NCBI GenBank assembly: GCA_036005065.1
Contig: DASYQW010000033.1
Location: 21,989-85,988 of the forward strand
Source of the DNA: Candidatus Methylomirabilota bacterium
GTDB taxonomy: Bacteria > Methylomirabilota > Methylomirabilia > Rokubacteriales > DASRDR01
Length of the DNA stretch: 64,000 nucleotides
Reading direction: 5' to 3'
Shown: positions 1 through 43,030 of the stretch, piece by piece
Position numbering within the stretch: position 1 is the first letter of the stretch
Layout: each line of letters begins with the position of its first letter
Made by a program: the position numbers and the translations under genes
Notes under the pieces: generated by a model
Told to the model about the DNA's origin: nothing
What the model saw: the letters and a program-made list of their open reading frames with translations, nothing else
Databases searched by the model: none

Positions 1-685
1 GCTCGATGCGGAAGACCCCGTCGACGCGGCCGGGACGGGGGGACATCACCACCACCCGATCCGACAGCAGCACGGCCTCCACGATCGAGTGGGTGATGAA
101 AAGCACCGTCTTCCGCGTCTCGAGCCACAGCCGCTCGATGTCCAGACGCATCTGCTCCCGCGTGAGGGCGTCGAGGGCGCCGAACGGCTCGTCCATCAGG
201 AGGAGCGGTGGGTCGTGGATCAGCGCCCGGCAGATCGCCGTGCGCTGGCGCATCCCGCCGGAGAGCTCGAAGGGATACTTGTCCTCGAACCCGGCGAGTC
301 CGACGGAGTGGAGGAGGGCCCGGGCCTTCGGCCGATAGGTCGCCACGTCGAGGCTGCGGCTCTCGACCTGCAGGAGCACGTTGCGGATCACGGTCCGCCA
401 GTCGAGGAGCACCGGGTTCTGGAACACGATGCCGATGTCGGTCTGCGGCCGCGTCACCGGCCGGCCGGCGAGCCGGACCTCGCCGGTCGACGCCGGGAGG
501 AGCCCGGCGATGATGAGCAGCAGCGTGCTCTTACCGCAGCCGCTCGGCCCCAGGATCGAGACGAACTCGCCCGCCGCGACGTCGAGCGTCACGGCTTCCA
601 GCGCCGCCACGAGGCCGTCCAGCGCGGCGTATGTCTTGGTGACGCCGGCGAGCTGGATCAGCGGCTCGGCCATCTCCTCGCTCAT
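1..685 (-). CDS. ABC transporter ATP-binding protein (NitT/TauT family, SsuB/TauB-like), 3'-partial; C-terminus lies beyond window start
   Basis: Reverse-strand translation starts MSEEMAEPLIQLAGVTKTY... and contains Walker A GPSGCGKST, an LSGGMRQR signature and a Walker B LLLMDEPF. The ATG sits immediately after a G-rich hairpin/RBS. It is the last gene of the permease-SBP-ATPase operon. Confidence 0.85.
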   Translation of the reverse strand, partial: MSEEMAEPLIQLAGVTKTYAALDGLVAALEAVTLDVAAGEFVSILGPSGCGKSTLLLIIAGLLPASTGEVRLAGRPVTRPQTDIGIVFQNPVLLDWRTVIRNVLLQVESRSLDVATYRPKARALLHSVGLAGFEDKYPFELSGGMRQRTAICRALIHDPPLLLMDEPFGALDALTREQMRLDIERLWLETRKTVLFITHSIVEAVLLSDRVVVMSPRPGRVDGVFRIE

Positions 686-762
686 GGGAGGGGGCCTCCA
701 CGGCCCCCTCCCAGGCCCACCCCCAGGAGGGGTGGCGGCGGCGGAGCCGCCGCTCGGAGCGG
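686..762 (+). repeat. Copy 3 of a structured intergenic repeat family (11-bp perfect hairpin gggagggggcc/ggccccctccc, then ...ggcggcggcggagccgccgctcggagcgg)
   Basis: Same architecture and shared 3' module (gccgccgctcggagcgg) as the copies at 30907 and 34751. It lies between the SBP stop and the ATPase start on the opposite-strand operon. Confidence 0.6.
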
Positions 763-816
763 ACCACCAGTTCCTTGCGGTTGGGCTTCGCGCTGCGTGC
801 GGTTACTCCGACCGGA

Positions 817-1809
817 TCACGGCAGGAACTCGTTCGTGTAGAAGGCCGTGGGCGGCAGGGTCGTCTCGAGCCCGCGGTACTGCTTGAGGATGTCGAGCGT
901 CGCCTGCCAGTCCTCGGGCGGCCCGTAGCCGAGCCGCTTCTGGGGGTTCGCCTTGCTGAAGAGGAGGGAGAGGTCGACGGCGAGCTGGCGGCGCACGATC
1001 TCGGCGTCGGCCAGCGGCGCCAGCTTCATGAGCGCCGCCACCGCCGCCTCCGGCTCCCGCATCGCGTCCTCGAACCCCTTGATGCTGGCTGCCACCACCT
1101 TGCGGACCAGGTCGGGACGTTCCTTGATCGTGTCCTGGTGGGCCAGGATCACGAAGCCGACCGAGGGCACGCCCAGGTCGCTGAACTTGAGGACGCGCGT
1201 CTTGAAGCCCTTCACCTCCATGGCGATCGCCTGGTCATCGGCGCCGCCTAGCAGGGCATCGGCGCGCTTCTCGGTCACCGACGGGATCTTCGCCTTGGGG
1301 TCCATGTGGATCAGCTTGATCGAGTCGGCGTTGAGCTTGTTGGCGGCGACCACCGCCGGCCACGTCTGGGTGAGGCCGTCGCCCGGCGTGATGGCGAGCG
1401 TCTTGCCTTCCAGGTCCTTGGCGCTGCGGATGTTCCTCTCGTCCAGCGAGACCACCGCATAGGGCAGGACGTTCAGGACGGTGGCCACCGCCTTGACCGG
1501 CACGCCCTTGGCCGCGTTCAGCGTGAGGGTCACGCCGTCCGCCCACCCGAAGGTATCCGACTTGTTCCCGATGAGCTGGACCGTCGTCGCCGAGCCACGG
1601 CCCTCGCCGATCTCCACGTTCACCCCGGCCTTCTCGAAGTAGCCGCGCTCCTTGGCCAGGGCGAACGGCGCGTGAATCCCGCCCCAGTACCAGTTCATCC
1701 GGAACGTCACCTTGTCCTGGGCGGTGGCGCGGCCGGCCTGCAGCACGGCCGCCCCGACGATGGCGATCGCCAGGAGGCCCAGCGCGGTCCAGAGACTGCG
1801 TCTCGTCAT
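817..1809 (-). CDS. ABC transporter substrate-binding protein, NMT1/THI5-like (SsuA/TauA family) with signal peptide
   Basis: 330-aa product MTRRSLWTALGLLAIAIVGAAVLQAGRATAQDKVTF... The N-terminal signal peptide and the NitT/TauT-type SBP fold are recognisable. The start was placed at an internal ATG of the long 817..3369 ORF. Confidence 0.85.
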   Translation of the reverse strand: MTRRSLWTALGLLAIAIVGAAVLQAGRATAQDKVTFRMNWYWGGIHAPFALAKERGYFEKAGVNVEIGEGRGSATTVQLIGNKSDTFGWADGVTLTLNAAKGVPVKAVATVLNVLPYAVVSLDERNIRSAKDLEGKTLAITPGDGLTQTWPAVVAANKLNADSIKLIHMDPKAKIPSVTEKRADALLGGADDQAIAMEVKGFKTRVLKFSDLGVPSVGFVILAHQDTIKERPDLVRKVVAASIKGFEDAMREPEAAVAALMKLAPLADAEIVRRQLAVDLSLLFSKANPQKRLGYGPPEDWQATLDILKQYRGLETTLPPTAFYTNEFLP

Positions 1810-1829
1810 GGCTTCCTCCTTGATGCGTG

Positions 1830-2633
1830 TCACAGGCCGCCTTCGGCGCCGAGGGGCCCGCGGCGCGAGATGTGCCAGGGAATGGCGATCCGCTCGAGGA
1901 GCGCCATCAGATAGTACAGGACCAGGCCGATGCCTGTCAGCACGACGAGCGTGGCGAAGAGGAGGTCCGTCCGGAGGTCGCCCCCCGCCACCAGCAAGAG
2001 GTAGCCGAGCCCGCGGTCCGACCCCACGAACTCGCCGATGATGGCGCCCACGGTGGCCAGCGTGATGGCGACCTTGAGGCCGGCGAAGATGTTGGGCAGA
2101 GCGTGCGGCAGGCGGACCTTCACGAACGCCCGCCAGGGCGACAGGCCCATCGAGCGCGTGAGGTAGACGATCTCCTGGTCCAGGGAGCGGAAGCCCACCA
2201 CGGCGTCGATCACGATGGGGAAGAACGAGAGCAGGAACGTCATGAAGACCTTGGGAAAGAGGCCGAAGCCGAACCAGATGATGAAGAGCGGGGCCAGGGC
2301 GATCTTGGGGATGAGCTGGGTGAAGACCAGGACCGGCATCACGCTCCGCTCGACGGCCCGGGAGAAGGCGACGGCCAGCCCGCAGGGGACGCTCACGGCC
2401 ACGCCCAGCAGGAAGCCCAGGATGATCTCCTGCAGTGTGACGAGGGCGTGCCGGCCGAGGAGGGGGGCGCGCGCGATCAGCTCGCGGGCGGTGTCGAGGG
2501 GGGTGGGCAAGAGGTAGCGCGGCACCTCGAGGCCGAGGAGCTGCCAGGCCACCAGGATGGCCGCGAAGGCCAGCGCGGTCTGGAGGTGAGCCTTGAAGCG
2601 CGCGGCCGCGCGGCGCGGGGCGCTCTCGGTCAT
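1830..2633 (-). CDS. ABC transporter permease (SsuC/TauC-like, BPD_transp_1)
   Basis: 267-aa multi-TM protein with a typical NitT/TauT permease EAA-like loop region. It sits 20 nt upstream of the SBP gene. Confidence 0.85.
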   Translation of the reverse strand: MTESAPRRAAARFKAHLQTALAFAAILVAWQLLGLEVPRYLLPTPLDTARELIARAPLLGRHALVTLQEIILGFLLGVAVSVPCGLAVAFSRAVERSVMPVLVFTQLIPKIALAPLFIIWFGFGLFPKVFMTFLLSFFPIVIDAVVGFRSLDQEIVYLTRSMGLSPWRAFVKVRLPHALPNIFAGLKVAITLATVGAIIGEFVGSDRGLGYLLLVAGGDLRTDLLFATLVVLTGIGLVLYYLMALLERIAIPWHISRRGPLGAEGGL

Positions 2634-2663
2634 CGCCCCACCCTCGGGCGCCGCATGCGGAGC

Positions 2664-3584
2664 CTACGCGGGGAGTAAGCCGGCCAGGACCAGCAATTCC
2701 CGGATGGTGCGGCGCTCGGCGTCCGCCAGCGGGAGCATGGGCGGCCGGACCGCGGCCGAGCGGAGGACTCCCAGCATCACGAGAGCCTCTTTCATCCGGG
2801 GCCGGTAGTCGCGAAGCGGCGGCCCCCACATCATCCGGGCCAGCGGCCCCAGCCGGTCCCAGATCCCGAAGGCGGTGGCGTAGTCGTGCTGCTGGACGGC
2901 CTCGAACATCTTCACCTGCAGGTCGAGCGCGATACCGCCGAATCCGATGAGCGCGCCGTGCGCCCCGAGGACGTACGCCTCGCAGAGGAACGTATCGCTC
3001 CCGGTGAGGACGGCCAGCGGCTTCGGCGCGCCGCGGAGCGCGCTCAGCGTGTCCACCAGTCGGGGCGCGTCGAAGGTGGACTCCTTCATGGCCGCCACCT
3101 GCGGGATCTCGGCCAGGCGGCGGAGCGTCTCGTTCGAGTAGGAGGGACCGATCCCGCGCGCGAACTGGAAGAGCACGAGGGGGAGCCCGGTCGCCTCGCC
3201 GATCGCGCGATGGTACTCGTAGGGCATCTGCCACGGGAGGGGCTCGCCCATGAAGGCCGGCACCGGGGGAAAGACCACCAGCCCGTCGGCGCCGGCCTTG
3301 CCCAGCGCCTGGCCCTGCGCCACCGCCTCCCGCGTCGAGCCGGCAATGAGGCCGCTCCACAGGGGACACGCCCCGCCGACCGCCTCCCGGGCGACCTCGA
3401 CGACCCGGAGGCGCTCCTCGACGGTGAGCGCGGGGCCTTCGCCGGCGTCCATGTTCAGGGCGAGGGCGGTCGGGCGTTGGGGGAGGAGCCAGCGGAGGTA
3501 GTCGCGAAGCCCCGCCCAGTCGACCTCGAAGTCGTCGGTCAGGGGCAGCACCGGCGCCGGCACGATGCCCCGGATCAGCTCCAT
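2664..3584 (-). CDS. Dihydrodipicolinate synthase/N-acetylneuraminate lyase family protein (DapA-like class I aldolase)
   Basis: 306-aa product MELIRGIVPAPVLPLTDDFEVDWAGLRDYLRWLL... with a GGGAGGG RBS. The start overlaps the upstream MoaD-like ORF by 10 nt. Confidence 0.8.
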   Translation of the reverse strand: MELIRGIVPAPVLPLTDDFEVDWAGLRDYLRWLLPQRPTALALNMDAGEGPALTVEERLRVVEVAREAVGGACPLWSGLIAGSTREAVAQGQALGKAGADGLVVFPPVPAFMGEPLPWQMPYEYHRAIGEATGLPLVLFQFARGIGPSYSNETLRRLAEIPQVAAMKESTFDAPRLVDTLSALRGAPKPLAVLTGSDTFLCEAYVLGAHGALIGFGGIALDLQVKMFEAVQQHDYATAFGIWDRLGPLARMMWGPPLRDYRPRMKEALVMLGVLRSAAVRPPMLPLADAERRTIRELLVLAGLLPA

Positions 3585-3940
3585 GGGCCCTCCCGGGAGG
3601 CGCCGGGCCAAGACCCGCCGCCCATGTACTGGCCGAGGAGCGTGATCCGGTCCCCGTCGAGGAGCTCCGAGTCGAGGTCGTGGGACACGCCGAGGACCGC
3701 GTTGTTGACCATGACCTCGATGTTGTCGCCGATCTCGCGGCGGCTGCCGGGATCCCACAGCGCGCCGCCGAGATCGGGATGCCGGTCGGTGACCTGGCGC
3801 AGCACGCCGCGCACGGTGGTGCCAGGTTTGACTTCCTCGGTCAGGGTCACCTCGCCCGTCCCCGGGCCGCCGACGAAGCGGTTCACCCAGGAGAGCACCT
3901 CGACGCGAACCCGGATGGGCTCGCCGGGCTTCCAGCTCAC
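3575..3940 (-). CDS. MoaD/ThiS-like sulfur-carrier (ubiquitin beta-grasp) protein with a 13-aa extension after the GG motif
   Basis: 121-aa product MSWKPGEPIRVRVEVLSWVNRFVGG...ITLLGQYMGGGSWPGASREGPWS. The GTG start overlaps the AOR TGA stop (GTGA). Only the last 121 codons of the 3575..5746 ORF are used. Confidence 0.6.
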   Translation of the reverse strand: MSWKPGEPIRVRVEVLSWVNRFVGGPGTGEVTLTEEVKPGTTVRGVLRQVTDRHPDLGGALWDPGSRREIGDNIEVMVNNAVLGVSHDLDSELLDGDRITLLGQYMGGGSWPGASREGPWS

Positions 3941-5853
3941 TTGGTTCCCCACACGGCGGGGATCATCCACTCCAGGCCGAGGGCCCGCAGCGTCTCCGGC
4001 TTGGGGCGCCCCGTCGGCCGGTCGTACCCCATCCCCTCGTACCAGACGTCCAGCATGTGCTCCCAGTGCTTCTCGACCGTCTGCCCTTTGGCCGGGCCGT
4101 CGACCGGCACCGACCCGTAGCGCTTGGAGGGGAACTCCTTGTCGGGGCCGATCCCGCAGCGCAGGTTGAAGGCGCGGAACATGGCGCCGATCCGGCGGCC
4201 GAATCGGACGGCGTCGTCCCGGGTGACCTCCCACCCGGTGGCCGCCGACAGCGCCCGGCAGAGGTTCTCGAAGGTGGTCCGCGTCGTGAAGATGCACGCC
4301 CCCAGCGAGTCCTCGAAGTGCCGCCGCCCGTTGAGTCCGGCGGTCTGCCGGGCGACCTGCTCGGGGTCGAAGGGATTGATCCGCGCCGGCAGGCCCAGCT
4401 CGGTGGGGAAGACCGGCGGCCCCGTCTCCAGCGTGCCGGTCGACCCGGTGCAGGTGTCGAGCAGCTCGTCCCAGCGCGCCCGGTGGTCGTGGCCGCGCGG
4501 CGAGGCGTTCTTCCCGGTATAGATCGCGCACTCGGCGGCCGGGCCGCCCAGGCGCTCGGCGGCGATCTTCGTTCCCTCGGCCAGGAGATCGCCGAGCCCC
4601 TGGCGGCGGCTCAGGAGGTCGAGAAGGCGATTGGCTCCCTCGGCATCCCCCCAGGTGAGGGGGAAGCCGAGCTGCGCCTCGGTGATGTAGCCCTTTTCCA
4701 TGCACTCCATCACCCAGCCGCAGAGCCACCCGAACTCGTTGACGTCGACGCAGGCGCGGTCGATCCGGGTGTTGAGCCAGGAGACGGCGACGGGGTCGGT
4801 GAGGCCGATCGTCCACCCTGCGCCCGACCAGCCCTCGTACTCCGGCTCGTCCACGATCTGCCCGGCGTACTTCCCCCTCGGCAGCACCTGCATGTGGCAG
4901 TGGTGCATGCCGCAGGCGCTGCACTGGTGTCCGCGGTGATCGAAGCCCTGGCGGAGGGCCGGCGCCTCCCACGTCTTCATGTCGACATCCGACGGGGCCA
5001 CGCTGGTCGTGTAGTTCTTGATCGGCAGCGCCCCGATGCCATGGAGGTTCACCACCCCCGGCAGCGTTCCGTACTCGTAGAGCGTCCGGGCCGCCGGATT
5101 CGTCTTGAGGTCGTGGGCGATCTCGTCGGCGGCCGCGATGACCCCGCGCGGATCGGCGGCCCGGAGGGCGTGGGTGCCGCGGACGATGGCCACGGCCTTG
5201 AGGCGCTTCTGTCCCATCACCGCGCCGCAGCCGTTCTTGGAGGCGACGTGGCCGTAGTCGCCCTGGATCGCCGCGAAGCGGACGAGATTCTCCCCCGCCG
5301 GGCCGATCGAGTAGACACTCAGCATGTGCCCGGCGAGCCCGATCTCCGCGCTCAGGGCGTCCTGGGTCTCCCAGGTGTCCTTGCCGAGGAGATGCGCGGC
5401 GTCCCGCACCTCGACCTGGTCGTCGTGGATCAGGAGGTAGACCCACCGCGGGGCCTGCCCCTGCAGGACGATCGCGTCGTACCCCGAGAACTTCAGGTTC
5501 GCCCCGAAGAAGCCGTTGGCCTGGGTGGACGTCGCGCCGTTCGTCATGGCGCCCCGGGTGATGACCGTCAGACCGCCGGTGCCCCAGACCGGGAGGCCCG
5601 CGAAGGGGCCGGTCGCGAGGACGAGGCGGTTCTCCGGGTGGTCCCATCCGACCTCGGGCGGCACTTCCTCCCAGAGGATCTTGGCGCCGAGGCCGGCGCC
5701 GCCGAGATAGTCGTGCATCTCCTGAGGCGTCCAGGGCTGGCTCCACGCCCGTCCCGCGCCGAGGTCGACCCGGAGGAGCCGGCCCGCATAGCCCCCGGGG
5801 AGCCCGGCTTTCGCCGCGGTCGTTTCCTTCGAGCCGGTCGCTGCCTGCGCCAT
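3937..5853 (-). CDS. Aldehyde:ferredoxin oxidoreductase family protein (tungsten/molybdopterin AOR, AorB-like)
   Basis: 638-aa product with the AOR N-terminal signature ...GGYAGRLLRVDLGAGRAWSQPWTPQEMHDYLGGAGLGAKILWEE. A GAGGAG RBS precedes the start. Confidence 0.9.
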   Translation of the reverse strand: MAQAATGSKETTAAKAGLPGGYAGRLLRVDLGAGRAWSQPWTPQEMHDYLGGAGLGAKILWEEVPPEVGWDHPENRLVLATGPFAGLPVWGTGGLTVITRGAMTNGATSTQANGFFGANLKFSGYDAIVLQGQAPRWVYLLIHDDQVEVRDAAHLLGKDTWETQDALSAEIGLAGHMLSVYSIGPAGENLVRFAAIQGDYGHVASKNGCGAVMGQKRLKAVAIVRGTHALRAADPRGVIAAADEIAHDLKTNPAARTLYEYGTLPGVVNLHGIGALPIKNYTTSVAPSDVDMKTWEAPALRQGFDHRGHQCSACGMHHCHMQVLPRGKYAGQIVDEPEYEGWSGAGWTIGLTDPVAVSWLNTRIDRACVDVNEFGWLCGWVMECMEKGYITEAQLGFPLTWGDAEGANRLLDLLSRRQGLGDLLAEGTKIAAERLGGPAAECAIYTGKNASPRGHDHRARWDELLDTCTGSTGTLETGPPVFPTELGLPARINPFDPEQVARQTAGLNGRRHFEDSLGACIFTTRTTFENLCRALSAATGWEVTRDDAVRFGRRIGAMFRAFNLRCGIGPDKEFPSKRYGSVPVDGPAKGQTVEKHWEHMLDVWYEGMGYDRPTGRPKPETLRALGLEWMIPAVWGTK

Positions 5854-5878
5854 CGTCGCTCCTCGCTCTCTCGCGCGC

Positions 5879-7216
5879 TCAGGCCCGCGTGGCGGTGGCG
5901 AAGACGGCCGGCGCCGCCGAGGGCCGGCCGAGCACGGTCTCCGGAAGGAGCCGCGCCGTCGTGCGGGACGCGATGAACGCGGGTTTGATGTCGAACGGGT
6001 TCCGCCGGAGATGCTCCTTCCACGGGCCGAGCCCGACTCCTGTCTGGACCAGTCCCTTGAGCATCCCCACGTCGTTGGTCGTCCAGATGTCGTCGGCCCG
6101 GCCCAGGATCATCGCCCCGGTCAGCCGGTCGCCGCGCCACAGGAGCTTCCGGTAGGCCGGGCGCTCCCGGCGCACCGCCGCGAACACCTCGGCCCCCGGG
6201 TCGTCCCAGCGGCCGAAGCTCGCCACGTCGAGCTGGCAGACGTCCACGATGTTCATGAGGAGGCTGCCCCGGTAGGCCAGGTCGCGGCCGGCCATGTTCG
6301 CCCCGACCACCCGGCCGTGCTCCATCGCCGTCGGCTCGATGGCGTGGACGTCCGGCTCGCCGGTCACCAGGTCACGGCCTTCGGCGATATCGCCCGCCGC
6401 GTAGACCTGGGGCACGCTCGAGCGGAGATGATCGTCCACCACCACGCCCCGGTTCACGCGGATTCCCGAGCCCTCCAGCCACTCCAGGTTGGTCCGGATG
6501 CCGGTCGCCATGATGACGACGTCGGCGTCGAGGTCGCCGCCGTCTCTGAAGCGGAGGCGTTGCTGGCCTCCCGCCTGCTCGACCGCGGTGAGGGTCGCGC
6601 TCGTGCGGATCTCGACCCCGTGCTTTCGCAACCACGCGTCGACCAGCTGGGCGCCCTCGCGGTCGATCATGCGCGGGAGGATCTGGGGGGCGATCTCGAC
6701 GATGGTGAGCCGGGCGCCCAGTCCCAGGATCGCGTTCAGGATCGTGAAGGCGATGAAGCCCGCCCCCACCATCACCACGTGGCTGCCCGGCTTGATCTCG
6801 GCCACCACCCGCCGGGCCTGGTCGAGCGTCCAGAAGCTGTGGACGCCCGGGCCGTCCACCCCGGAGACCGGCGGCCGGACGGCCGAGGAGCCGGTCGCGA
6901 TGAGAAGGTCGTCGTACTCGAGGGTCGCCCCGTCGTCCAGCGTGAGCTTGGCCGCCTTCGGATCGAGGCTCGCCGCGCGGCGTCCCAGGTGGGTGGTCAC
7001 CTTCAGCTGGGCGAGCCGGGCCGGCGTGGCGGTGAACACGTGGGACTCGGCGATGGTGCGGCCCAGGTAGTACGGGAGGACCATGCGCGAGTAGGGCCGC
7101 TCGGCGGAGACGAGCACGATCTCGGAGCCGTCGCGCCCCCGCTCCTCCTGGCGGATCGTGATGATGGCGTTGTGCCCGGCCGTGCCCCCGCCGACGATCA
7201 CGTGGCGCTTCGCCAT
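5879..7216 (-). CDS. FAD-dependent pyridine nucleotide-disulfide oxidoreductase (AorC-like NAD(P)H-linked subunit)
   Basis: 445-aa product MAKRHVIVGGGTAGHNAI... with FAD GxGxxG and second NAD-binding motif VVMVGAGFIAFT. The ATG overlaps the ferredoxin TGA stop (ATGA). Confidence 0.85.
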   Translation of the reverse strand: MAKRHVIVGGGTAGHNAIITIRQEERGRDGSEIVLVSAERPYSRMVLPYYLGRTIAESHVFTATPARLAQLKVTTHLGRRAASLDPKAAKLTLDDGATLEYDDLLIATGSSAVRPPVSGVDGPGVHSFWTLDQARRVVAEIKPGSHVVMVGAGFIAFTILNAILGLGARLTIVEIAPQILPRMIDREGAQLVDAWLRKHGVEIRTSATLTAVEQAGGQQRLRFRDGGDLDADVVIMATGIRTNLEWLEGSGIRVNRGVVVDDHLRSSVPQVYAAGDIAEGRDLVTGEPDVHAIEPTAMEHGRVVGANMAGRDLAYRGSLLMNIVDVCQLDVASFGRWDDPGAEVFAAVRRERPAYRKLLWRGDRLTGAMILGRADDIWTTNDVGMLKGLVQTGVGLGPWKEHLRRNPFDIKPAFIASRTTARLLPETVLGRPSAAPAVFATATRA

Positions 7217-7710
7217 CACCGGCCTCCGTTCCCGGCCACCGCGGCCAGCACGCGCTGCCCGCGCTCGGCGGCGAAGTCGGCCAGCCAGTCGGCGGTCTCG
7301 ACCTCCTCGTAGAGGATCGCCTGGGTCGGGCAGGCGCTGGCGCACGCCGGATCGCCGTCGCAGAGGTTGCACTTGAACGCCTTGTGGGTCTCCGGGTTGT
7401 AGAAGATCGTCCCGTAGGGGCAGGCGATCGTGCAGAGCTTGCAGCCGACACACTGGTCGTCCTGGACGATCTTGGCGCCGGCCGGCGAGATCACGATCGC
7501 CCCGACCGGGCAGGCCGTCATGCACCATCCCTCGGCGCACTGGACGCACGTGTAGGGGGCGTAGCTCGTGTGCCCTTCATAGGGTGAGACCCGGATGACC
7601 GACTTGGACGGCTGGAACGCGCCCGTCTGCATGTACGAGCAGGCGTACTCGCAGCGGAGACAGCCGGTGCAGCGTTCCGGCACGATCTTCAGGACCTTCA
7701 TGTGCGCCAT
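7216..7710 (-). CDS. 4x[4Fe-4S] ferredoxin-type protein (AorA-like electron-transfer subunit)
   Basis: 164-aa product with four CxxCxxCxxxCP-type motifs (CTGCLRCEYAC, CVQCAEGWCMTACP, CVGCKLCTIACP, CNLCDGDPACASACP). A GAGGA RBS precedes the start. Confidence 0.9.
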   Translation of the reverse strand: MAHMKVLKIVPERCTGCLRCEYACSYMQTGAFQPSKSVIRVSPYEGHTSYAPYTCVQCAEGWCMTACPVGAIVISPAGAKIVQDDQCVGCKLCTIACPYGTIFYNPETHKAFKCNLCDGDPACASACPTQAILYEEVETADWLADFAAERGQRVLAAVAGNGGR

Positions 7711-7871: not shown

Positions 7872-10052
7872 TCACTGCGTGGGCGCGAAGCCCGGGCGGT
7901 CCGGCAGGCCGGCCGCGGGGATCTCGAAGACCGGTTCGCGCGCCGGCGGGGACGCGCCGGTGTCGGGGTTCCAGACTTCCACCCCCTCGGACAGGAAGAA
8001 GCGGGCCACCTGCTCCTGGGCCGCCCGGGCCAGCGTCCCGGCTGCCCCGGGGGCCCCGATCCGGAGGAGGAACCCGTGCGGCTCGGCGAGCTCCTTGGGC
8101 ACGCTCCCCGCCACGCGATCGTAGCGCAGCAGCGCGGTGGCGTCCGAGAGCTGGCCGGCGCGGACGAGCGCGCTCGTCGTCGGGTTCGGGACGACGGCGT
8201 CCCCCCAGGCGAACTGGATCAGGACCCGCTTGGGCTCCTGGCCGAGCAGCGGGCTCGCCCGCAGGTACCGCGCGTAGGCGACGGGATCGCCGCGCCGGGC
8301 CAGCCACTCGGCGCGCGCGAGGTACTCCTGGACGGCCAGCGCGCCCGGCGCGGGTGAGACGACCGGCGGGTCGCCCCGGAGCGGCAAGTCCTCCCGGAAG
8401 CCGTCCTCGGCGTTGAGGAGCGAGGGCGTGCGACCCTCGAGGACCCGGCGCAGCGCCGGCCGGAAGACCGGCGAGAGGCGGGCGACCTCGGCGATCGGCC
8501 CGCCCGGCACGTTGAGGACGCCGACGCGGAGGCGCGGATCGACGGCAAGGAAGAGCGTCCCGTAGATCCCGCCGAGGGACTGTCCCACGTACGAGATCGC
8601 GTCGCCGCGCGTATCGGGCATGCCGTCGCCGTCCACGTCGAGCCCGGCTTTGAGCGCGCGCGCGAACGCCATCAGGTCGACCACCTGCTGGCGCAGCCCG
8701 TCGCGCAGCCCGACCAGGGCGAGCGGCCCGGGCGTCGGGGGGCTCAGCCCCTCGGTCGCGTCGATCTTGCCGTCCCCGTTCAGATCGATCCCGCGGCCCG
8801 GGACCCGCACCTCGAGCGGTGCCCCATCCGTCCGCTCCACGATCAGGCGACCTTCGGGCCCCCCGCCGTGCCCCACCACCGTCACCGCGGCCGTCGCGAT
8901 CCCGTGGCGCGCGAGCACGCCGGCGATCCGGAGCGCGCTCGAGAACATCTCCCCGCCGTAGCCGTGTCCCATGATCGCGACCGGCCAGCCTTCGGGCGGC
9001 CGGCTTCCCGCCGGCAGCACGATCACGAACGGGAGCGGCACGTCCCCCGGCGCCGCCGGCTGGGGCCGCGCGGTCGCGGCCTCGACGATGCGTCGATCGC
9101 GGGTCAGGTACGCGGGCGACCAGTACCATCCGACCCCGACCCCGGCGACCGCATCCGGGGGCAGCGCGGCCAGTGAAAGGGGTCCGTCCTGGAAGGCATC
9201 CGGCGCCTCGAGCGCCACCCGCACCTGCCGGCGCAGGACGAGGCCTTTCAGCGTCGCCCGGGGGAAGTAGGCGCGTCCCCCACCCTCGGGAGCGGTCATG
9301 ACGGCCGGGGGCGGCGGACGCCGCTCGAGGGCGTCGCGGGCGTGCTCGAGGAAGGTCGTCACGCTCGCGGTGGTGAAGACCGCCGCCACCGTCACCGTCT
9401 CCTCGCGCACGCCCCGGCGGTCCAGCGCGGCCATGAGCGCATTGAGCCGCCGGCGGTAGTCCTGCACGGCCGGCGGCCCAGCGCGCCGACGCAGGAAGCC
9501 GCGGAATGCCGCCGAGGGGCGGAGCGGCCGCCCCTGGACATCGCGGAGCTCCCGCGTGACGACCAGTCCGTAGCGCGTCTCCGGCTCCAGCAGCGTCTCC
9601 GGCCGGGCGTAGAGTGTCTGGGACCCGGGATCGTAGACCAGGCGGTCGACCGCCATCGCCTCCGGCGGCCCCGGCGCGAGACGCACGAGGAAGAGGCTCC
9701 GCACGGTCACGCTCGCCGGGTCGATGGGCCCCGAGAAGGCCACGGCCAGGCGCGGGCTCAAGTCGAACCCGTCCAGCTCGTTGAGCAGGTGGACGTCGTC
9801 GCAGGTCGAGGGCTGGAGAGCGCAGTCGGGCAAGGGCAGCGCCACCCGGAGGCCCGTCCGCTGAGCGGCGTCGGCGAGGGTCAGGCGATCGGAGGGAAGA
9901 GGGCCGCGCTCCGGCCGCGCGGGATCGAAGCGGGGCTCGACGGCTGCCGCGGCGCGCCCGACCAAGGCCAGCGGATGGGCGCCGGCACTCCCCGCGGTCG
10001 CGAGCAGGACGATCGCCAGGAGGACGCCGGTCCGCCGCCCGCGCGCGCGCAC
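7872..10052 (-). CDS. Secreted alpha/beta-hydrolase fold protein (GxSxG nucleophile elbow GQSLGG) with a large N-terminal domain and DxDxDG Ca-binding-like loops
   Basis: The signal peptide RARGRRTGVLLAIVLLATAGSAGA is followed by GHGYGGEMF, YVGQSLGGIYG, DLNGDGKID and DVDGDGMPD. The GTG start was chosen where it overlaps the upstream Gfo stop, so the exact start is uncertain. Confidence 0.6.
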   Translation of the reverse strand: MRARGRRTGVLLAIVLLATAGSAGAHPLALVGRAAAAVEPRFDPARPERGPLPSDRLTLADAAQRTGLRVALPLPDCALQPSTCDDVHLLNELDGFDLSPRLAVAFSGPIDPASVTVRSLFLVRLAPGPPEAMAVDRLVYDPGSQTLYARPETLLEPETRYGLVVTRELRDVQGRPLRPSAAFRGFLRRRAGPPAVQDYRRRLNALMAALDRRGVREETVTVAAVFTTASVTTFLEHARDALERRPPPPAVMTAPEGGGRAYFPRATLKGLVLRRQVRVALEAPDAFQDGPLSLAALPPDAVAGVGVGWYWSPAYLTRDRRIVEAATARPQPAAPGDVPLPFVIVLPAGSRPPEGWPVAIMGHGYGGEMFSSALRIAGVLARHGIATAAVTVVGHGGGPEGRLIVERTDGAPLEVRVPGRGIDLNGDGKIDATEGLSPPTPGPLALVGLRDGLRQQVVDLMAFARALKAGLDVDGDGMPDTRGDAISYVGQSLGGIYGTLFLAVDPRLRVGVLNVPGGPIAEVARLSPVFRPALRRVLEGRTPSLLNAEDGFREDLPLRGDPPVVSPAPGALAVQEYLARAEWLARRGDPVAYARYLRASPLLGQEPKRVLIQFAWGDAVVPNPTTSALVRAGQLSDATALLRYDRVAGSVPKELAEPHGFLLRIGAPGAAGTLARAAQEQVARFFLSEGVEVWNPDTGASPPAREPVFEIPAAGLPDRPGFAPTQ

Positions 10053-10056
10053 GCGG

Positions 10057-11235
10057 TCACCCACGGCGGTCTCGAGCGAGGTCGACCCGCCGGCCCTCCT
10101 GGGCGGACACGTAGGCGGCATAGATGACCTCCACGGTCTCCCGTGCCAGGAGCGCGCCCGAGAGCGGCTCCCGGCCCTCACGGAGGGCGTCGACGAAGTC
10201 CGCCATCTCCTGCGGGTAGCCGCGTGTCCAGTCCTCGTCGGGGCTCGGAAACTGCCAGCCGGCTTTGGTCTCCACCTTCTCGGTGAGGTACTCGTCCCCC
10301 CAGACCGCGCCCTCGGGCGCGTAGATCTGGAGCGTCGTGTTCGGATTGATGTTCACCTGGACGACCCCGTTGGTGAAGTAGGCGGTGACCAGGTTCTTCA
10401 CGCCGCCGAGGCTCACGTCGGTCGCCATGACCGTCGCCTTGGTCCCGTCCTCGAACGTGAGGATGGCCGCCGACCAGTCCTCGACGTCCTCCCAGCTCGT
10501 CACCAGCCACTGCGGGGACGTCGCCCGGACGGCCGGGACCTCCGTGAGCCGGCCGACCTCCCCGATGACCGACGCCACCCGGATCGGCGCTCCACGCCTC
10601 TGCCGCCCCTCGTAGTGCTTCAAGTGGATCACCGCCCCGATCGGGTGGGAGCCCATCCGGAGGAGCGAGCCGCCCCCGGCCGTCGCCCAGCGGCGGGAGT
10701 AGTCGGCGTGGGAACCGGAGTGGCTCTCCTCGGCGCGCAGATCGAGCAGCGTCCCGCCGGCCCGGTCCATGAGACGCCGGAGCTTGGCCATGGCCGGCGC
10801 GTAGACGAAGTTCTCCGCGTAGCAGAGGGTGACGCCGTTCTCCCGGCAGGCGTCGAGGATGGCGTCGGCGTTCTGCCGGGCCGCGTCGAGCATGGCCTGC
10901 CGGGACAGGGCCTCGGCCTCCACGAAGCAGCCGGTCAGCGGCTTCTCGACGATGACGTGCTTGCCGGCCCGGGCGGCGTCGATGGCGAAGAGGTGGTGGT
11001 GACTGGTGACCACCGGCAAGGTGACGACGTCGATGTCCGGCCGGTCGAGGAGGGCGCGATGATCCGTGTACGCGTGCGGGATGCCGAACTTCCGGGCGAA
11101 CGCCTCCGCGCGCTCCCGCGACCGCGAGTAGACGGCCCGGAGCTCGCACTTGACCCCGCGCGATGCGCCGAGCGCGTGGGCGTGGAGGTCGGCCGCGAAC
11201 CCGGCTCCGATGAAACCGATGCCGAGCGTCTCCAC
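10057..11235 (-). CDS. Gfo/Idh/MocA family NAD(P)-dependent oxidoreductase (paralog A)
   Basis: Rossmann GIGFIGAGF, HVIVEKPLTG, C-terminal GGVKNLVTAY ... NPNTTLQIYAP. The GTG start follows a GGAG RBS. Only the C-terminal ~392 codons of the 10057..12063 ORF are used. Confidence 0.75.
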   Translation of the reverse strand: METLGIGFIGAGFAADLHAHALGASRGVKCELRAVYSRSRERAEAFARKFGIPHAYTDHRALLDRPDIDVVTLPVVTSHHHLFAIDAARAGKHVIVEKPLTGCFVEAEALSRQAMLDAARQNADAILDACRENGVTLCYAENFVYAPAMAKLRRLMDRAGGTLLDLRAEESHSGSHADYSRRWATAGGGSLLRMGSHPIGAVIHLKHYEGRQRRGAPIRVASVIGEVGRLTEVPAVRATSPQWLVTSWEDVEDWSAAILTFEDGTKATVMATDVSLGGVKNLVTAYFTNGVVQVNINPNTTLQIYAPEGAVWGDEYLTEKVETKAGWQFPSPDEDWTRGYPQEMADFVDALREGREPLSGALLARETVEVIYAAYVSAQEGRRVDLARDRRG

Positions 11236-14633: not shown

Positions 14634-16832
14634 CTAGGGGGCGAACGAGCCGAGGACAGCCTGTCCAATCTCGGACGTCGAGGCACCCATGATCTGAGGT
14701 GAGGCGGCGAGGCTGCGCGGACCGCGGACCTCGAAGCCCACCGCGTCGACGAGGCGCGCGGCCGCGTCGACGAGCGAGAGGGTGTGCCGGCCGGGAGTGG
14801 GCTCCCAGGCGACGGGGCCGGCGGCCGGCCCCATGTCGCGGGTGTCGAGGACCCACCGAAGCGGCACAGCGCGCGCCTGGGCCTCGAAGACCATGCGTTG
14901 CCGCGCCGGTGGGATGTCCGGGTCGAGCGCCACGATGGTCCCGCTGACGGGGGCGAGGATCCGTGGCTGGCCGCCGGTGAGCGCCGGCGCCCCGGCCGGC
15001 TCCGTTCCGGCGAGGAACCACTCGTCCCGACGCCGCACGATCCCGGAGGGCGGGCGGGGCGGTCGGCTCGGCGTGGCCTCGTGGAGCCAGGTCATGACGT
15101 CGCGCCAGACGGGCGCGGCTCCGGTCACGCCGCTCACGTCTCGCATCGGCGCGCCGGACGCATTCCCGACCCAGACCCCGACCGTGTAGCGCTCCGAGTA
15201 CCCGACGCACCAGTTGTCGCGCATCTCCTTGCTGGTGCCGGTCTTGACGGCGGTCCAGAAGCGGGTGGCGAGCGGGTTCTCGAGCCCGAAGGTCGCGACC
15301 CGGCTCTCGCGCTGGGCGAGGATGTCCGATACCAGGAAGGCCACCGCCTCGGAGTACACGCGGCTCGCGGGATGGGTCACGTCAGCGTCCCTCATGGCCA
15401 GGGAGCCCGGGAGGCCGCCGTTGGCGAGGGTGCGGTAGGCGTTCACGAGCTCCCACAGGCTCACGTCCGCGGACCCGAGCGCCAGCGCCGGGCCGTAATA
15501 GTCACCCGCTTCGGTGAGCCCGGCGAACCCGAGGCGTCGGAGCTGGTGGACGAAGACGTCGGCCCCCACCAGGCCGAGCGTCCGCACCGCGGGCACGTTG
15601 AGCGACGACGCGAGCGCGGCGCGGGCGGTGACGAGACCCCGGAACTGCTCGTCGTAGTTGCGCGGGCGGTAGAGACCGCCCGTGACCGGCACCTCGAGGG
15701 GCGTGTCCTCCAGGAGCGACGCCGGCGTCAGGAGCCCGGCGTCGAGCGCCTGGGCATAGAGGAACGGCTTGAGGGCGGAGCCGGCCTGCCGGCGCGCGCG
15801 GATGCCGTCCACATGGCGGGCGCTCGACAGATCCCCGCTGCTCCCCACGTAGGCCACGACCGCGCCGGTCGCGTTCTCGACCACCAGGACCGCCCCGTCC
15901 TGGACGTTCTGGCCCCGGACCCCGAGGAGGTGGCGGCGGAGGGTGTCGATGGCCACGCGCTGAACCCGCGCATCCAGGGTGGAGCGGACCGGCGCGACGG
16001 GAGCGGGCGGCCCGGGACGGCGGAGGAGTCGGGCCGCCGCATGCGGGGCGAGGGCCACGCGCGGGCCCGTCCCGCGGGGTGCCGCCAGGGCCCGGGTGAC
16101 CGCGGCGCGGATGGCATCAGGCGTGGCGGCGCTTCCCTGGACCTCGCGCAGCGCCCACGCCCGCCGGGCCACGGCGTCGGGCTCGGCGTTCGGGGCGCGC
16201 AGGAGGACCGCCAGGACGGCCGCCTCGGCCTCGGTGAGGCCGTGGGGCGCCTTGCCGAAAAGGACGGACGCCGCGGCCGCCACGCCCTGGAGCTCGCCGC
16301 GAAAAGTCACCAGGTTGGCGTAGGCCTCGAGGATCTCGGCCTTCGACCAGCGCGCCTCGAGGGCCCGGGCGACCCGGACCTGGCGCCACTTCTGGGCGAG
16401 CGTGCGCGGGCCGTCGCGGCGCCGAAGATCGCGGTCGAGCGCGGCGGCCAGCTGCATCGAGATCGTGCTGCCTCCGCGGCGCGGGCCGCCTCGGAGCCTC
16501 CCGGCGGCCGCCGCCAGGAGCGCCCGGCCATCGACCCCCCGGTGGCGGTAGAAGCGGCGGTCCTCGGACGCGACGACGGCGGCCGGCAGGGCCGGCGAGA
16601 TGGCCGCGAGCGGCGTCCACTGGAGCCGCCGGCGCGTCGAGTCGAGTCGCAGCTCGTGCAGGAGCTCACCGTGACGATCGAGCAGGGCGAGGTCCGAGGG
16701 ACGATAGGCCGCGCGGACGGCCGCGAAGGCCGGGATCCCGGGGGCCGGCCCGCCGAAGAGTCCCCAGCCGGCGGCGGCGATGGCGGCGCCGATCCCGGCG
16801 CCGCCGAGGAGGAGCACGGTGGGGCGTGTCAC
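14634..16832 (-). CDS. pbpC: Penicillin-binding protein 1C (PbpC): glycosyltransferase + transpeptidase + PbpC C-terminal domain
   Basis: GT51 motifs (EDRRFYRHRGVD, GGSTISMQLA), transpeptidase SALKPF, SLN and KTGTS. The GTG start overlaps the A2M TGA (GTGA). This is the canonical partner of bacterial alpha-2-macroglobulin. Confidence 0.85.
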   Translation of the reverse strand: MTRPTVLLLGGAGIGAAIAAAGWGLFGGPAPGIPAFAAVRAAYRPSDLALLDRHGELLHELRLDSTRRRLQWTPLAAISPALPAAVVASEDRRFYRHRGVDGRALLAAAAGRLRGGPRRGGSTISMQLAAALDRDLRRRDGPRTLAQKWRQVRVARALEARWSKAEILEAYANLVTFRGELQGVAAAASVLFGKAPHGLTEAEAAVLAVLLRAPNAEPDAVARRAWALREVQGSAATPDAIRAAVTRALAAPRGTGPRVALAPHAAARLLRRPGPPAPVAPVRSTLDARVQRVAIDTLRRHLLGVRGQNVQDGAVLVVENATGAVVAYVGSSGDLSSARHVDGIRARRQAGSALKPFLYAQALDAGLLTPASLLEDTPLEVPVTGGLYRPRNYDEQFRGLVTARAALASSLNVPAVRTLGLVGADVFVHQLRRLGFAGLTEAGDYYGPALALGSADVSLWELVNAYRTLANGGLPGSLAMRDADVTHPASRVYSEAVAFLVSDILAQRESRVATFGLENPLATRFWTAVKTGTSKEMRDNWCVGYSERYTVGVWVGNASGAPMRDVSGVTGAAPVWRDVMTWLHEATPSRPPRPPSGIVRRRDEWFLAGTEPAGAPALTGGQPRILAPVSGTIVALDPDIPPARQRMVFEAQARAVPLRWVLDTRDMGPAAGPVAWEPTPGRHTLSLVDAAARLVDAVGFEVRGPRSLAASPQIMGASTSEIGQAVLGSFAP

Positions 16833-22570: not shown

Positions 22571-22678
22571 CAGCAGCCTTCGACGGAATACCCTGAGGGG
22601 AATTCAGGAGGCCGGTCGCTGTCGATCTGGCGCCCTCCCGTTCGACTAATGAGTGAATCCCACACAAGAGGAGGCGCC

Positions 22679-37297: not shown

Positions 37298-37485
37298 GGT
37301 CCGTCCCCCGTCCAGTGCGGAGTCCGGGGACCTGTGGCGTCCCCGGCCGCCCCATTCTATGCCGATTCGGGGCGGTGCGGGTTTCGTGCCGGGATCGCCG
37401 ATTTTCCTGCTACTCTGCCCTCGAAGCCGAGATCCGCCGGATCTTCGCGCTGCGCTAGCCGCCGAGGCACGGAGAGCTGCCGCCG

Positions 37486-38418
37486 ATGACGACGCCGGGT
37501 CGGGTGAAGTTCGCGATCGCCGTGCCGCAGCTCTTCCGCGAGCCGCGCGTCGACCTGACGGCCCTCCGAGAGTTTCTTCAGCGGGCGGAGACGCTCGGCT
37601 GCCACAGCGTCTGGGTTCAGGAGCAGATCCTGGGGGAGGCCGGGAGCCTCGAGCCGGTGGCCCTCCTCGCCCACGCCGCGGCCCTGACGGAGCGACTGCG
37701 GCTCGGCGTGGCCGTGCTGCTGACACCGCTCCGGAGCCCCGTGCAGCTGGCCAAGGCCCTGACGACCGTGGATCAGCTGAGCGCGGGACGGCTCATCGTG
37801 GGTGTCGGCCTCGGGGGCCGAACCACGATCTACCCCGCCTTCGGGCTGTCGCCGGAGCGGCGGGTCCGCCGCTTCACCGAGGGCCTCGAGGTCATGAAGC
37901 GGCTCTGGACCCAGGATCGCGTCACGTTCGACGGCGACTTCGTCAAGCTCGAGGACGCGGCCATGGCGCCCAAGCCGGTCCAGAGGCCGCATCCCCCCAT
38001 CTGGTTCGGCGCCCATCACATCGACGCGGTGCGACGGGCCGTCCGGCTGGGTGATGGCTTCATCGGAGCCGGGGCCTCGTCCACGGCGGAGTTCAAGGAT
38101 CAGGTCGCCCAAGTGCGGCGGTTCGTCGCCGAGAGCGGGCGGGACCCGTCGACCTTCGCCCTCGCCAAGCGCGTCTACATTCACGTCGATTCCGACCGCG
38201 CCCGCGGGGTCGCCCGGCTGCGCGAGTGGTTCGGCTGGTACTACGGGAACGCGGAGCTCGCCGAGCGGGTGGCGGTGGCGGGCTCCGTCGAGGCGTGCGT
38301 GAACGAGCTCCGAGAGATCCGGGCGGCCGGCGCCGAGCTGCTGCTCCTGAACCCCGTGTTCGAGGAGCAGCGGCATCTGGAGCTCTTCGCCCGCGAGGTC
38401 ATGGCGGCGGTGCGATGA
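37486..38418 (+). CDS. LLM-class (luciferase-like) flavin/F420-dependent oxidoreductase
   Basis: 310-aa product with a TIM-barrel LLM signature (LGCHSVWVQEQ..., PKPVQRPHPPIWFGA). Confidence 0.8.
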   Translation: MTTPGRVKFAIAVPQLFREPRVDLTALREFLQRAETLGCHSVWVQEQILGEAGSLEPVALLAHAAALTERLRLGVAVLLTPLRSPVQLAKALTTVDQLSAGRLIVGVGLGGRTTIYPAFGLSPERRVRRFTEGLEVMKRLWTQDRVTFDGDFVKLEDAAMAPKPVQRPHPPIWFGAHHIDAVRRAVRLGDGFIGAGASSTAEFKDQVAQVRRFVAESGRDPSTFALAKRVYIHVDSDRARGVARLREWFGWYYGNAELAERVAVAGSVEACVNELREIRAAGAELLLLNPVFEEQRHLELFAREVMAAVR

Positions 38419-41048: not shown

Positions 41049-41084
41049 TGCTGTCGTCTCCCTTCTCCTCCCGGGAGAGGCAGA

Positions 41085-42542
<1,458 letters not shown>

Positions 42543-43030
42543 GGCCCGGGCCTCCGATGCAAGATGGTGCGGATTGTCCGCCCATCCTAGCATCGCCAGC
42601 GGCGAGGCGGAAGGCGCGATTCCACGGCGACTTGGGAAATAATCGGTAAGTTTTCTCCCAGTCCGGGCGGCTGGAAATGATAAAAAACGGACCAGGCGGA
42701 GGCCAAGTGGCCGCACCGTCGAGTCGAAAGGTCTTTGGCTGGACTTGTTTAGCAGCCTTGTCGCTTCTTGGTACCTCTGTTGCGTACTTCAGATCTGCCG
42801 ACTGGTCGTCGGCGGAGGAGGGTCGGCGTGGCCGAGGGGTCTGGCGCGGTCATTCAGGGGTATGCCCTGATCACCGAGGGAGGCGCCGTGACGCCGCGGG
42901 ATCGTCGCGACGGGGCCAGGGCGGGGGTGTCCGGAATTCAAATTTGTTGCATGAATAGGCGCTCTTCGGTACCCTCAGTTAGTTTTGGACCTGACGGCCG
43001 GAGGCGCGCCCAGAGAGAGACGGGAGGGCG

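Follow-up and report, generated by a model that had tools for sequence, protein, structure and literature searches.

Tungsten oxidoreductases (WORs) were classified in 2026 into 92 clades, only five of which have a defined physiological role (PMC13328260). Class III, which makes up ~5% of the family and has one characterized member, combines the catalytic subunit WorL with WorS, a flavin adenine dinucleotide (FAD) subunit, WorN, and an accessory protein, WorX (PMC13328260). The aldehyde oxidoreductase (AOR) operon of Aromatoleum aromaticum, aorABCDE, includes two genes (aorD and aorE) for MoaD-like putative cofactor-maturation factors (PMC6365974). Here we describe an AOR-containing gene cluster at one end of a 64,000-nucleotide stretch of a Candidatus Methylomirabilota genome of the Rokubacteriales (contig DASYQW010000033.1, positions 21,989 to 85,988), hereafter called the window. 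Genes for a ferredoxin, a flavoprotein, the AOR catalytic subunit and a MoaD-like protein are followed, on the same strand, by genes for a member of the dihydrodipicolinate synthase (DHDPS) superfamily, which we call the lyase, and for the permease, substrate-binding protein (SBP) and ATPase of an ATP-binding cassette (ABC) importer. We found no published description of this eight-gene arrangement in the literature. The cluster is composed of two independently conserved modules, which neighbor each other in a single Rokubacteria sublineage only. The reading we favor, with a probability of about 0.6, is that the modules are juxtaposed without an obligatory link.

This view comes from comparing gene neighborhoods anchored on each module in turn. 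For the lyase, we took one genome per species, collected the best 80 of 189 relatives with 10-kb flanks, and located homologs of the window proteins by tblastn. Where the lyase is <75% identical to that of the window, the permease gene adjoins it in 50 of 56 loci, the SBP gene in 52/56 and the ATPase gene in 53/56. These loci span Burkholderiales/Casimicrobiaceae, Alphaproteobacteria (including the cultured Bauldia litoralis), NC10 and Chloroflexota. Among the 38 loci in this identity range with at least 6 kb of flank on each side, not one has an AOR gene within 10 kb of the lyase gene. At ≥75% identity, AOR was detected by tblastn within the same distance in eight of nine loci, and in the ninth (L014) it is apparently frameshifted. 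The AOR module lies upstream of the lyase gene only in a Rokubacteria sublineage with lyases ≥79% identical to that of the window.

For the oxidoreductase, we examined 80 metagenomic loci of the AOR clade (69–86% identity), counting only where flanks suffice. With at least 2 kb upstream, the ferredoxin gene is present in 44/46 loci and the flavoprotein gene in 43/46; a MoaD-like gene follows AOR in 64/67. The lyase gene was found downstream of AOR in none of the 30 loci with <80% identity and at least 4 kb of downstream sequence. At ≥80% identity, it is present in one of four loci (L095) and absent from L092, L094 (86% identical) and L006. Individual neighborhoods labeled with Pfam families are concordant with the counts from both anchors. 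Because AOR is missing from all 38 lyase loci and the lyase from all 30 AOR loci, we treat the two modules as separately conserved. A first-pass annotation of the window had proposed a single, self-contained pathway of import, C–C cleavage and aldehyde oxidation (or acid reduction). The counts speak against that proposal, as do the LysE and PIN genes that separate the modules in most close relatives (see below). A shared import–cleavage–oxidation pathway is possible, albeit without support from broad co-occurrence. The same annotation had suggested looking for AOR, lyase and SBP genes side by side in related genomes: they do co-occur in one clade, so it cannot be said that they never do, but not beyond that clade. 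Because of this co-occurrence, the idea is weakened rather than refuted.

Each module has other recurrent neighbors. In 16 of 30 AOR-clade loci, a gene for a beta-hydroxyacid (3-hydroxyisobutyrate-type) dehydrogenase, carrying NAD_binding_2 and NAD_binding_11 domains, lies on the same strand 0.5–5.8 kb downstream (for example L092 6520-7416, L117, L130, L132 and L152); the window contains no homolog. This neighbor hints that acid semialdehydes are the usual substrates of the AOR clade. For the lyase–importer module, clustering of open reading frames (ORFs) from 84 loci yielded only two further partners, a small cupin in 34 loci and, in 13, an IclR regulator; the remaining recurrent neighbors were attributed to local synteny in Burkholderiales and set aside. 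In the 34 proteobacterial loci, the small cupin gene (Cupin_2) lies just upstream of the permease gene (L087 6783-7229). Most Rokubacteria carry a ChrR-like Cupin_7 gene between the permease and SBP genes (L003 11854-12195), which is absent from the window and from L007. At lyase loci without an NMT1 transporter, the neighbors include other ABC importers, AP_endonuc_2 proteins, FAD oxidoreductases and old yellow enzyme (OYE) homologs, and no consistent pathway emerged from them. In one NC10 genome (OY970067.1; L001 1-3320, minus strand), genes for a ferredoxin, a 542-aa prismane/carbon monoxide dehydrogenase-like protein and a Pyr_redox_2 flavoprotein lie near the lyase–importer module; here the same ferredoxin and FAD partners as in the AOR module surround a different catalytic subunit.

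The eight co-directional genes occupy positions 1-7710 of the window. At ~71% G+C, raw ORF lists are noisy; coding frames were therefore chosen by third-position G+C content (GC3), which gives one clean frame per gene. In order of transcription, the features are:

7216-7710, minus strand: ferredoxin subunit, AorA/WorS-like (164 aa; Pfam Fer4 types)
5879-7216, minus strand: FAD/NAD(H) oxidoreductase, AorC/WorN-like (445 aa; Pyr_redox_2, 2e-55)
3937-5853, minus strand: AOR catalytic subunit, WorL/AorB-like, predicted to bind tungstopterin and [4Fe-4S] (638 aa; AFOR_N and AFOR_C)
3575-3940, minus strand: MoaD/ThiS-like beta-grasp protein, AorD/WorX-like (121 aa; GTG start; ThiS, 5e-05)
3575-3584, minus strand: MoaD–lyase overlap junction (10 nt; MoaD-like stop inside the lyase start, ATGGAGCTGA)
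2664-3584, minus strand: putative Schiff-base enzyme of the DHDPS superfamily ('lyase'), uncharacterized subfamily (306 aa; DHDPS, 6e-34)
1830-2633, minus strand: ABC importer permease, NitT/TauT-type (267 aa; BPD_transp_1, 4e-29)
817-1809, minus strand: NMT1/THI5-like periplasmic SBP (330 aa; N-terminal signal-like segment MTRRSLWTALGLLAIAIVGAAV; NMT1, 2.5e-45)
2-685, minus strand: ABC importer ATPase (first 227 aa only, the 3' end lying beyond the window edge; ABC_tran, 2e-31)

The first-pass annotation had named these eight minus-strand genes, their families and their order, and Pfam confirms all of them, including DHDPS, NMT1 and, for AOR, both AFOR_N and AFOR_C. Its account of the packing holds as to tightness, but the gap between the SBP and ATPase genes is 131 nt rather than 20–30, and there is one GTGA overlap only. 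In transcription order, the junctions are a 1-nt overlap (TGATG, the flavoprotein start on the ferredoxin stop), a 25-nt gap, a 4-nt overlap (GTGA, the MoaD-like start on the AOR stop), the 10-nt overlap, and gaps of 30, 20 and 131 nt. No earlier in-frame start codon for the ATPase lies within the 131-nt gap. A purine-rich, Shine-Dalgarno-like stretch precedes most of the eight genes. A promoter and terminator scan returned nothing above chance expectation, and zero terminator-like sites on the minus strand inside the cluster, although such a scan is weak evidence for this phylum. The two modules lie head to tail and, in this genome, probably share a single transcript. The cluster probably extends past position 1, since in relatives an F420-type luciferase-like oxidoreductase gene comes after the ATPase gene.

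The boundary between the modules is variable. A LysE-family exporter gene stands between the MoaD-like gene and the lyase gene in eight of nine close species loci, joined in some by a PIN toxin gene (loci in the range L008-L015, for example L009 8575-9207 and 9589-9984); L006 has LysE, PIN and Uma2 genes in place of the lyase gene. The MoaD-like proteins of LysE-bearing loci (such as L095 12230-12240), like those of the AOR clade at large, terminate in ...YMGG followed by a stop codon. Those of the window and of L003 (9960-10013) run on for 13–15 residues past the GG, to a stop codon overlapping the ATG of the lyase; in the window, 31 extra nt, including a GGAGG Shine-Dalgarno sequence, separate the GG from that ATG. 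Finally, the closest relative, L007 (9990-10010), and an independent assembly, P0004 (421 aa), carry an in-frame MoaD–lyase fusion (...LLGQYMGG-A-MELIRG...). The simplest reading is that the GG-stop end is ancestral and that a deletion took out the spacer together with the stop codon. The operon-like 10-nt overlap would then be recent and derived. Should the modules turn out to be unrelated, the locus would represent ordinary neighboring operons whose boundary was erased by deletion. Lacking a free Gly-Gly at its C terminus, the MoaD-like protein would need proteolytic processing if it served as a sulfur carrier.

The fusion, seen in two independent assemblies, and the C-terminal tails in the window and L003 also bring up a quite different idea, namely that the true functional partner of the MoaD-like protein is the DHDPS-fold enzyme, for example in a sulfur-carrier or ubiquitin-like modification rather than in tungsten-cofactor maturation. 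We consider this highly improbable. The MoaD-like gene follows AOR in those 64 of 67 loci regardless of the lyase, more than 50 lyase loci lack any MoaD-like gene, and both fusion and tails are most simply explained as by-products of the stop-removing deletion.

Other observations weigh against mere juxtaposition. At least 11 sublineage loci have kept the modules adjacent while the junction itself changed, which could reflect selection for a shared function and not just common descent. In the window, L003 and L007, the modules are either fused or translationally contiguous, as expected of co-regulated partners. Furthermore, aldehydes and semialdehydes, natural substrates for an AOR, are common products of the DHDPS family. 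Taken in this direction, the eight (or more) genes would form one dedicated catabolic operon of this Rokubacteria lineage, in which the lyase acts on an imported compound by cleavage or elimination, giving an aldehyde or semialdehyde for the Class III enzyme to oxidize to an acid with reduction of NAD+. Such an operon would account for the tight co-directional packing with its stop/start overlaps, for the lack of a minus-strand terminator-like site within the cluster (subject to the weakness of the scan), for the recurrence of the arrangement in at least 11 related loci and for the in-frame fusion in the closest relative. The semialdehyde-forming beta-hydroxyacid dehydrogenase often found beside AOR elsewhere fits as well, if an aldehyde source beside AOR is a recurring design. 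Yet beyond one sublineage the modules occur independently of each other (0/38 and 0/30), and even AOR loci at 86% identity (L092, L094) lack the lyase. LysE and PIN genes usually stand between the modules. The lyase lacks the canonical aldolase triad and may not release an aldehyde, and the close relatives are only ~80–87% identical, so the shared synteny may be plain inheritance. On balance we regard a dedicated operon as possible but doubtful, and juxtaposition without an obligatory link as the better account of the locus.

Turning to the oxidoreductase module itself, its subunits resemble those of the A. aromaticum complex. The ferredoxin has 16 Cys residues in four CxxCxx(xx)CxxxC(P) motifs, predicting four [4Fe-4S] clusters, and its best match among solved structures is 8c0z_C (AorA; 1e-49). 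For the flavoprotein, which has two GxGxxG motifs, the best match is 8c0z_E (AorC; 2e-74, residues 4-417), with a runner-up at 1.6e-41; a PadH-like match (6e-75) falls under the cut-off. The catalytic subunit contains PF02730 (AFOR_N; 2.9e-63, residues 24-223) and PF01314 (AFOR_C; 3.1e-78, residues 242-627). It matches 1aor (PfAOR; 8e-88), 9mqx_D (4.5e-84) and 8c0z_A (AorB; 2.6e-74), and aligns over its full length to these and to 9g7j_A. Matches of the MoaD-like protein to SAMP1 and moaD_arch are under the cut-off, and its internal GG precedes a 13-aa tail. The first-pass description of an AorA/B/C-like complex is borne out by the AorA and AorC matches to 8C0Z and by the presence of a MoaD-like gene in the aor operon (PMC6365974). 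Three Class III features are encoded in the window: a small subunit predicted to carry four clusters, an FAD/NAD subunit and a MoaD-like accessory protein. By analogy, we infer that this module is a Class III tungsten oxidoreductase of the AorABC/WorLSN plus WorX kind, presumably using tungsten and NAD. Of the other ORFs in the window that were scanned, none was a tungstate-uptake or pterin-synthesis gene. No WOR clade number can be assigned to the window AOR because the 2026 classification contains no mention of Rokubacteria, DHDPS, ABC transporters, or MoaD by that name.

The AOR active site departs from that of known aldehyde oxidizers, in which the second-shell residues are Thr243, Glu313, Tyr427 and His448 (PMC12096430, PMC13328260). 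The window AOR retains Thr243 (Thr263, in YGT) and Glu311, Tyr312 and Glu313 (the last being Glu340, in PEYE). Four independent pairwise alignments agree on three replacements: Tyr427 by His455, the 'universally conserved' His448 by Glu476 and Tyr452 by Pro479. Judged from these sequence alignments, the full Thr243/Glu313/Tyr427/His448 signature is missing. His at position 427 has a precedent in the Clostridium formicoaceticum enzyme (AOR_Cf), and Glu at 448 and Pro at 452 appear to have none among characterized AORs. The motif PRGHDHRxRW...DTxTxSxGTL is invariant in the AOR clade (18 homologs, 72–87% identity). The [4Fe-4S] ligands of PfAOR (Cys288, 291, 295 and 494) correspond to Cys311, Cys314, Cys319 and Cys520, which are invariant or nearly so in the clade; the third Cys is displaced by one residue, giving CX2CX4C rather than CX2CX3C. 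The cluster motif includes a His-rich stretch, CGMHHCHM (residues 314-321), also invariant in the 18 homologs. The variant residues may point to a non-standard substrate or proton relay.

The DHDPS-like enzyme shows a comparable mixture of conserved and altered features. PF00701 matches it end to end (residues 5-298), with 117.6 bits against a cut-off of 22.1. All NCBIfam equivalog scores are under their cut-offs: DapA (TIGR00674), 108 versus 206 bits; KdgD, 57.5 versus 374; NanA, 38.7 versus 382; and Arch_KDGaldase, 32.6 versus 390. Active-site residues were mapped by alignment to the DHDPS structure 3PUD, which shares the numbering of the E. coli enzyme:

Lys161 (E. coli/3PUD): Lys167 in the window enzyme, within AAMKEST; kept, the predicted Schiff-base lysine
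Thr44/Thr45 (E. coli/3PUD): Asp46/Ala47 in the window enzyme; replaced
Tyr133 (E. coli/3PUD): Phe139 in the window enzyme; replaced
Tyr107 (E. coli/3PUD): Met112 (Phe111) in the window enzyme; replaced
Arg138 (E. coli/3PUD): Gly144 in the window enzyme; replaced

The GTTGE and YNxP motifs of the triad Tyr133-Thr44-Tyr107 are absent from the window enzyme, which has NMDAxEGP and FQF as replacements. Lys167 is invariant among 18 homologs (52–86% identity), as are the motifs NMDAxEGP, FPPxPxFxGxP, FQF, KExxFD and the C-terminal RDYRPRxKE. Hence, of the label 'DapA-family lyase' or 'class I aldolase' given in the first-pass annotation, the DHDPS fold and the lysine survive, but the Tyr/Thr/Tyr triad and Arg138 have been replaced. 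We interpret the enzyme as a member of a distinct, uncharacterized DHDPS subfamily, which on the present alignments should not be named DapA or presumed to be a pyruvate aldolase. It probably still works through a lysine Schiff base, without the canonical proton relay.

Reactions of the DHDPS family are reversible aldol-type condensations, and in DapA the condensation partner is aspartate semialdehyde. This provides a model for a reductive or biosynthetic version of the locus, in which the tungsten enzyme, supplied with NADH or low-potential electrons, would reduce a carboxylic acid to an aldehyde for condensation with a carbonyl partner by the DHDPS-fold enzyme. Acid reduction is indeed within the reach of AORs, that of A. 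aromaticum included (PMC6365974, PMC9295118). In AorABC it is, however, very slow and requires donors of very low potential (PMC6365974). Moreover, the strict pairing of lyase and importer in at least 50 loci suggests catabolism or salvage of an external solute, and the enzyme lacks both Arg138 and the triad, which a DapA-type condensation needs. We therefore judge a reductive role very improbable.

The importer consists of one permease, one ATPase and one NMT1-type SBP, as identified by Pfam. Among solved structures, the SBP is nearest to 4nmy_A (2e-25), followed by ThiY (3ix1; 1.4e-14) and THI5 (1e-09). Equivalog scores are again all under the cut-off: SsuA_fam, 65 versus 163.5; SsuC, 96 versus 347; TauC, 96 versus 342; TauB, 220 versus 357 (for the ATPase, at 2.7e-65); and ntrB, 74 versus 209. 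Structurally characterized NMT1 SBPs bind thiamine or aminopyrimidines (PMC10443332), and the window SBP appears closest to these binders, not to binders of sulfonate or nitrate. The first-pass label of a sulfonate/nitrate-type importer is thus sound at the level of the family, but the Tau, Ssu and Nrt models remain under cut-off, and the nearest relatives of the SBP are 4NMY and ThiY/THI5. We take 'sulfonate/nitrate-type' as the name of a transporter family, not as a prediction of substrate.

Two more specific assignments were considered and rejected. The best NCBIfam match of the permease is SaoP, from the selenoprotein-associated organometallic (Sao) locus described in anaerobes; the scores are far under cut-off and the CC/CU motifs inapplicable. 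Desulfonation of the SsuD type, which would give an aldehyde, was considered for the luciferase-like gene found downstream in relatives. The SsuD score is 59 versus 518 bits, and the gene product scores as an F420-dependent LLM-class oxidoreductase (TIGR03619, above cut-off).

How might the two modules work? By analogy with the characterized AorABC, the WorL subunit would oxidize an aldehyde to the acid at a tungsten-bis-pyranopterin site, and electrons would pass from its [4Fe-4S] cluster through the four ferredoxin clusters (five [4Fe-4S] in all) to the FAD subunit and on to NAD+. This chemistry may also operate in the opposite direction. The MoaD-like protein would help in cofactor maturation and not be a subunit. 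In the other module, going by what is known of the families, the NMT1/ThiY-like SBP would hand a small solute to the ABC importer, and the DHDPS-fold enzyme would use the Lys167 Schiff base to act on that solute or one of its carbonyl derivatives. The modules would have become neighbors in one Rokubacteria sublineage; in the window, the usual LysE gene is absent and the MoaD stop would have been displaced, such that the ORFs overlap. The comparative data establish the gene content, the families, the independence of the modules and the variability of the junction; they do not require a metabolic hand-over from one module to the other. The chemistry of such a hand-over is plausible, because the DHDPS family often releases aldehydes and the usual neighbor of the AOR clade forms semialdehydes. 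One can envisage a new route particular to this lineage, in which the importer takes up an N-heterocyclic or other small solute, the rebuilt DHDPS-fold enzyme converts it to an aldehyde, and the Class III enzyme with its His448-to-Glu replacement oxidizes the aldehyde with NAD+. We think this route unlikely, though not far-fetched. If true, a Class III WOR would for the first time have a dedicated physiological pathway, and a widespread orphan DHDPS subfamily would gain a function.

The remainder of the window holds a variety of other genes. About 160 nt upstream of the cluster, 7872-10181 (minus strand) encodes a protein of 769 aa that looks secreted and has a weak Big_5 match and a VolA/Pla-1 phospholipase-like (lipase-like) region under the cut-off. 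Large genes also occupy this position in L003, where the product (712 aa) matches Hydrolase_4 weakly, and in L006, where it (740 aa) has no Pfam match; the correspondence is one of position. A 1924-aa bacterial alpha-2-macroglobulin (MG2, bMG3, A2M_BRD, A2M and bMG10 domains) is encoded at 16829-22603 (minus strand). The product of 38872-39948 (minus strand) is a luciferase-like oxidoreductase 62% identical to the F420-type LLM protein encoded after the ATPase in relatives; its gene clusters with genes for a GFO/IDH/MocA oxidoreductase and an NAD-dependent aldehyde dehydrogenase (39861-41084 and 41085-42788, both minus strand), and a second LLM paralog lies at 37459-38418 (plus strand). The window also holds genes for a hybrid sensor kinase, a MacB-type transporter, an adenylate cyclase and polysaccharide export. 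No tRNA genes, and no Rfam families at the gathering threshold, were detected in the 64 kb.

Collectively, these data point to a new Class III WOR member with a variant active site, a lyase–importer cassette that is a widespread orphan, and a lineage-specific arrangement of the eight genes. The AOR clade is large in soil and groundwater, with >570 metagenomic matches from Rokubacteria, NC10 and relatives. Its active site departs from the aldehyde-oxidizer signature, and in one sublineage it stands beside a cassette that is a candidate supplier of substrate. The window thereby offers a concrete pair of proteins that could help assign functions to an orphan DHDPS subfamily, found in 189 stretches of species-representative genomes, and to an uncharacterized WOR clade.

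The closest described system is AorABC(DE) of A. aromaticum EbN1 (8C0Z; PMC6365974, PMC10413684, PMC13328260). The window likewise encodes the three subunit types together with a MoaD-like accessory gene, present in one copy rather than two, and its gene order is A-C-B-D rather than A-B-C-D-E. For the catalytic subunit, the match to AorB (2.6e-74) is no closer than that to the archaeal enzyme PfAOR (8e-88). This subunit differs by the replacement of two residues of the proposed proton relay, His448 by Glu and Tyr452 by Pro, by that of Tyr427 by His, and by the CX2CX4C motif; the MoaD-like protein differs by the tail after its GG. NAD+ as electron acceptor and an (LS)nN nanowire quaternary structure are features of the A. 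aromaticum complex (PMC10413684).

With the ThiXYZ-type and NitT/TauT importers (ThiY 3IX1; SsuABC, TauABC, NrtABC), the window importer shares a three-part architecture and an NMT1-type SBP. Its permease and ATPase are most like SsuC/TauC and TauB, yet far under the Tau, Ssu and Nrt cut-offs. Its SBP is similar to ThiY, a formylaminopyrimidine binder, but no thiamine-salvage genes lie near the window importer.

In the archaeal non-phosphorylative Entner-Doudoroff pathway, a DHDPS-family KD(P)G aldolase (KDG, 2-keto-3-deoxygluconate) acts first, and the resulting glyceraldehyde is then oxidized by an aldehyde oxidoreductase. The first-pass model follows the same chemical logic, with a class I lyase passing an aldehyde to a pterin-dependent oxidoreductase. 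The window differs in its low Arch_KDGaldase score (32.6 versus 390 bits), in the absence of the triad, in having an importer that is not of the sugar type, and in a coupling confined to one clade.

Lastly, the window lyase has in common with the DapA/NAL superfamily (for example the E. coli and A. baumannii DHDPS enzymes 1DHP and 3PUD, the KDG aldolase YagE, and KdgD) the fold and an in-register Schiff-base lysine. It lacks the Tyr/Thr/Tyr triad and Arg138, and has invariant motifs of its own. Unlike these enzymes, members of the window subfamily are almost always encoded beside an ABC importer.

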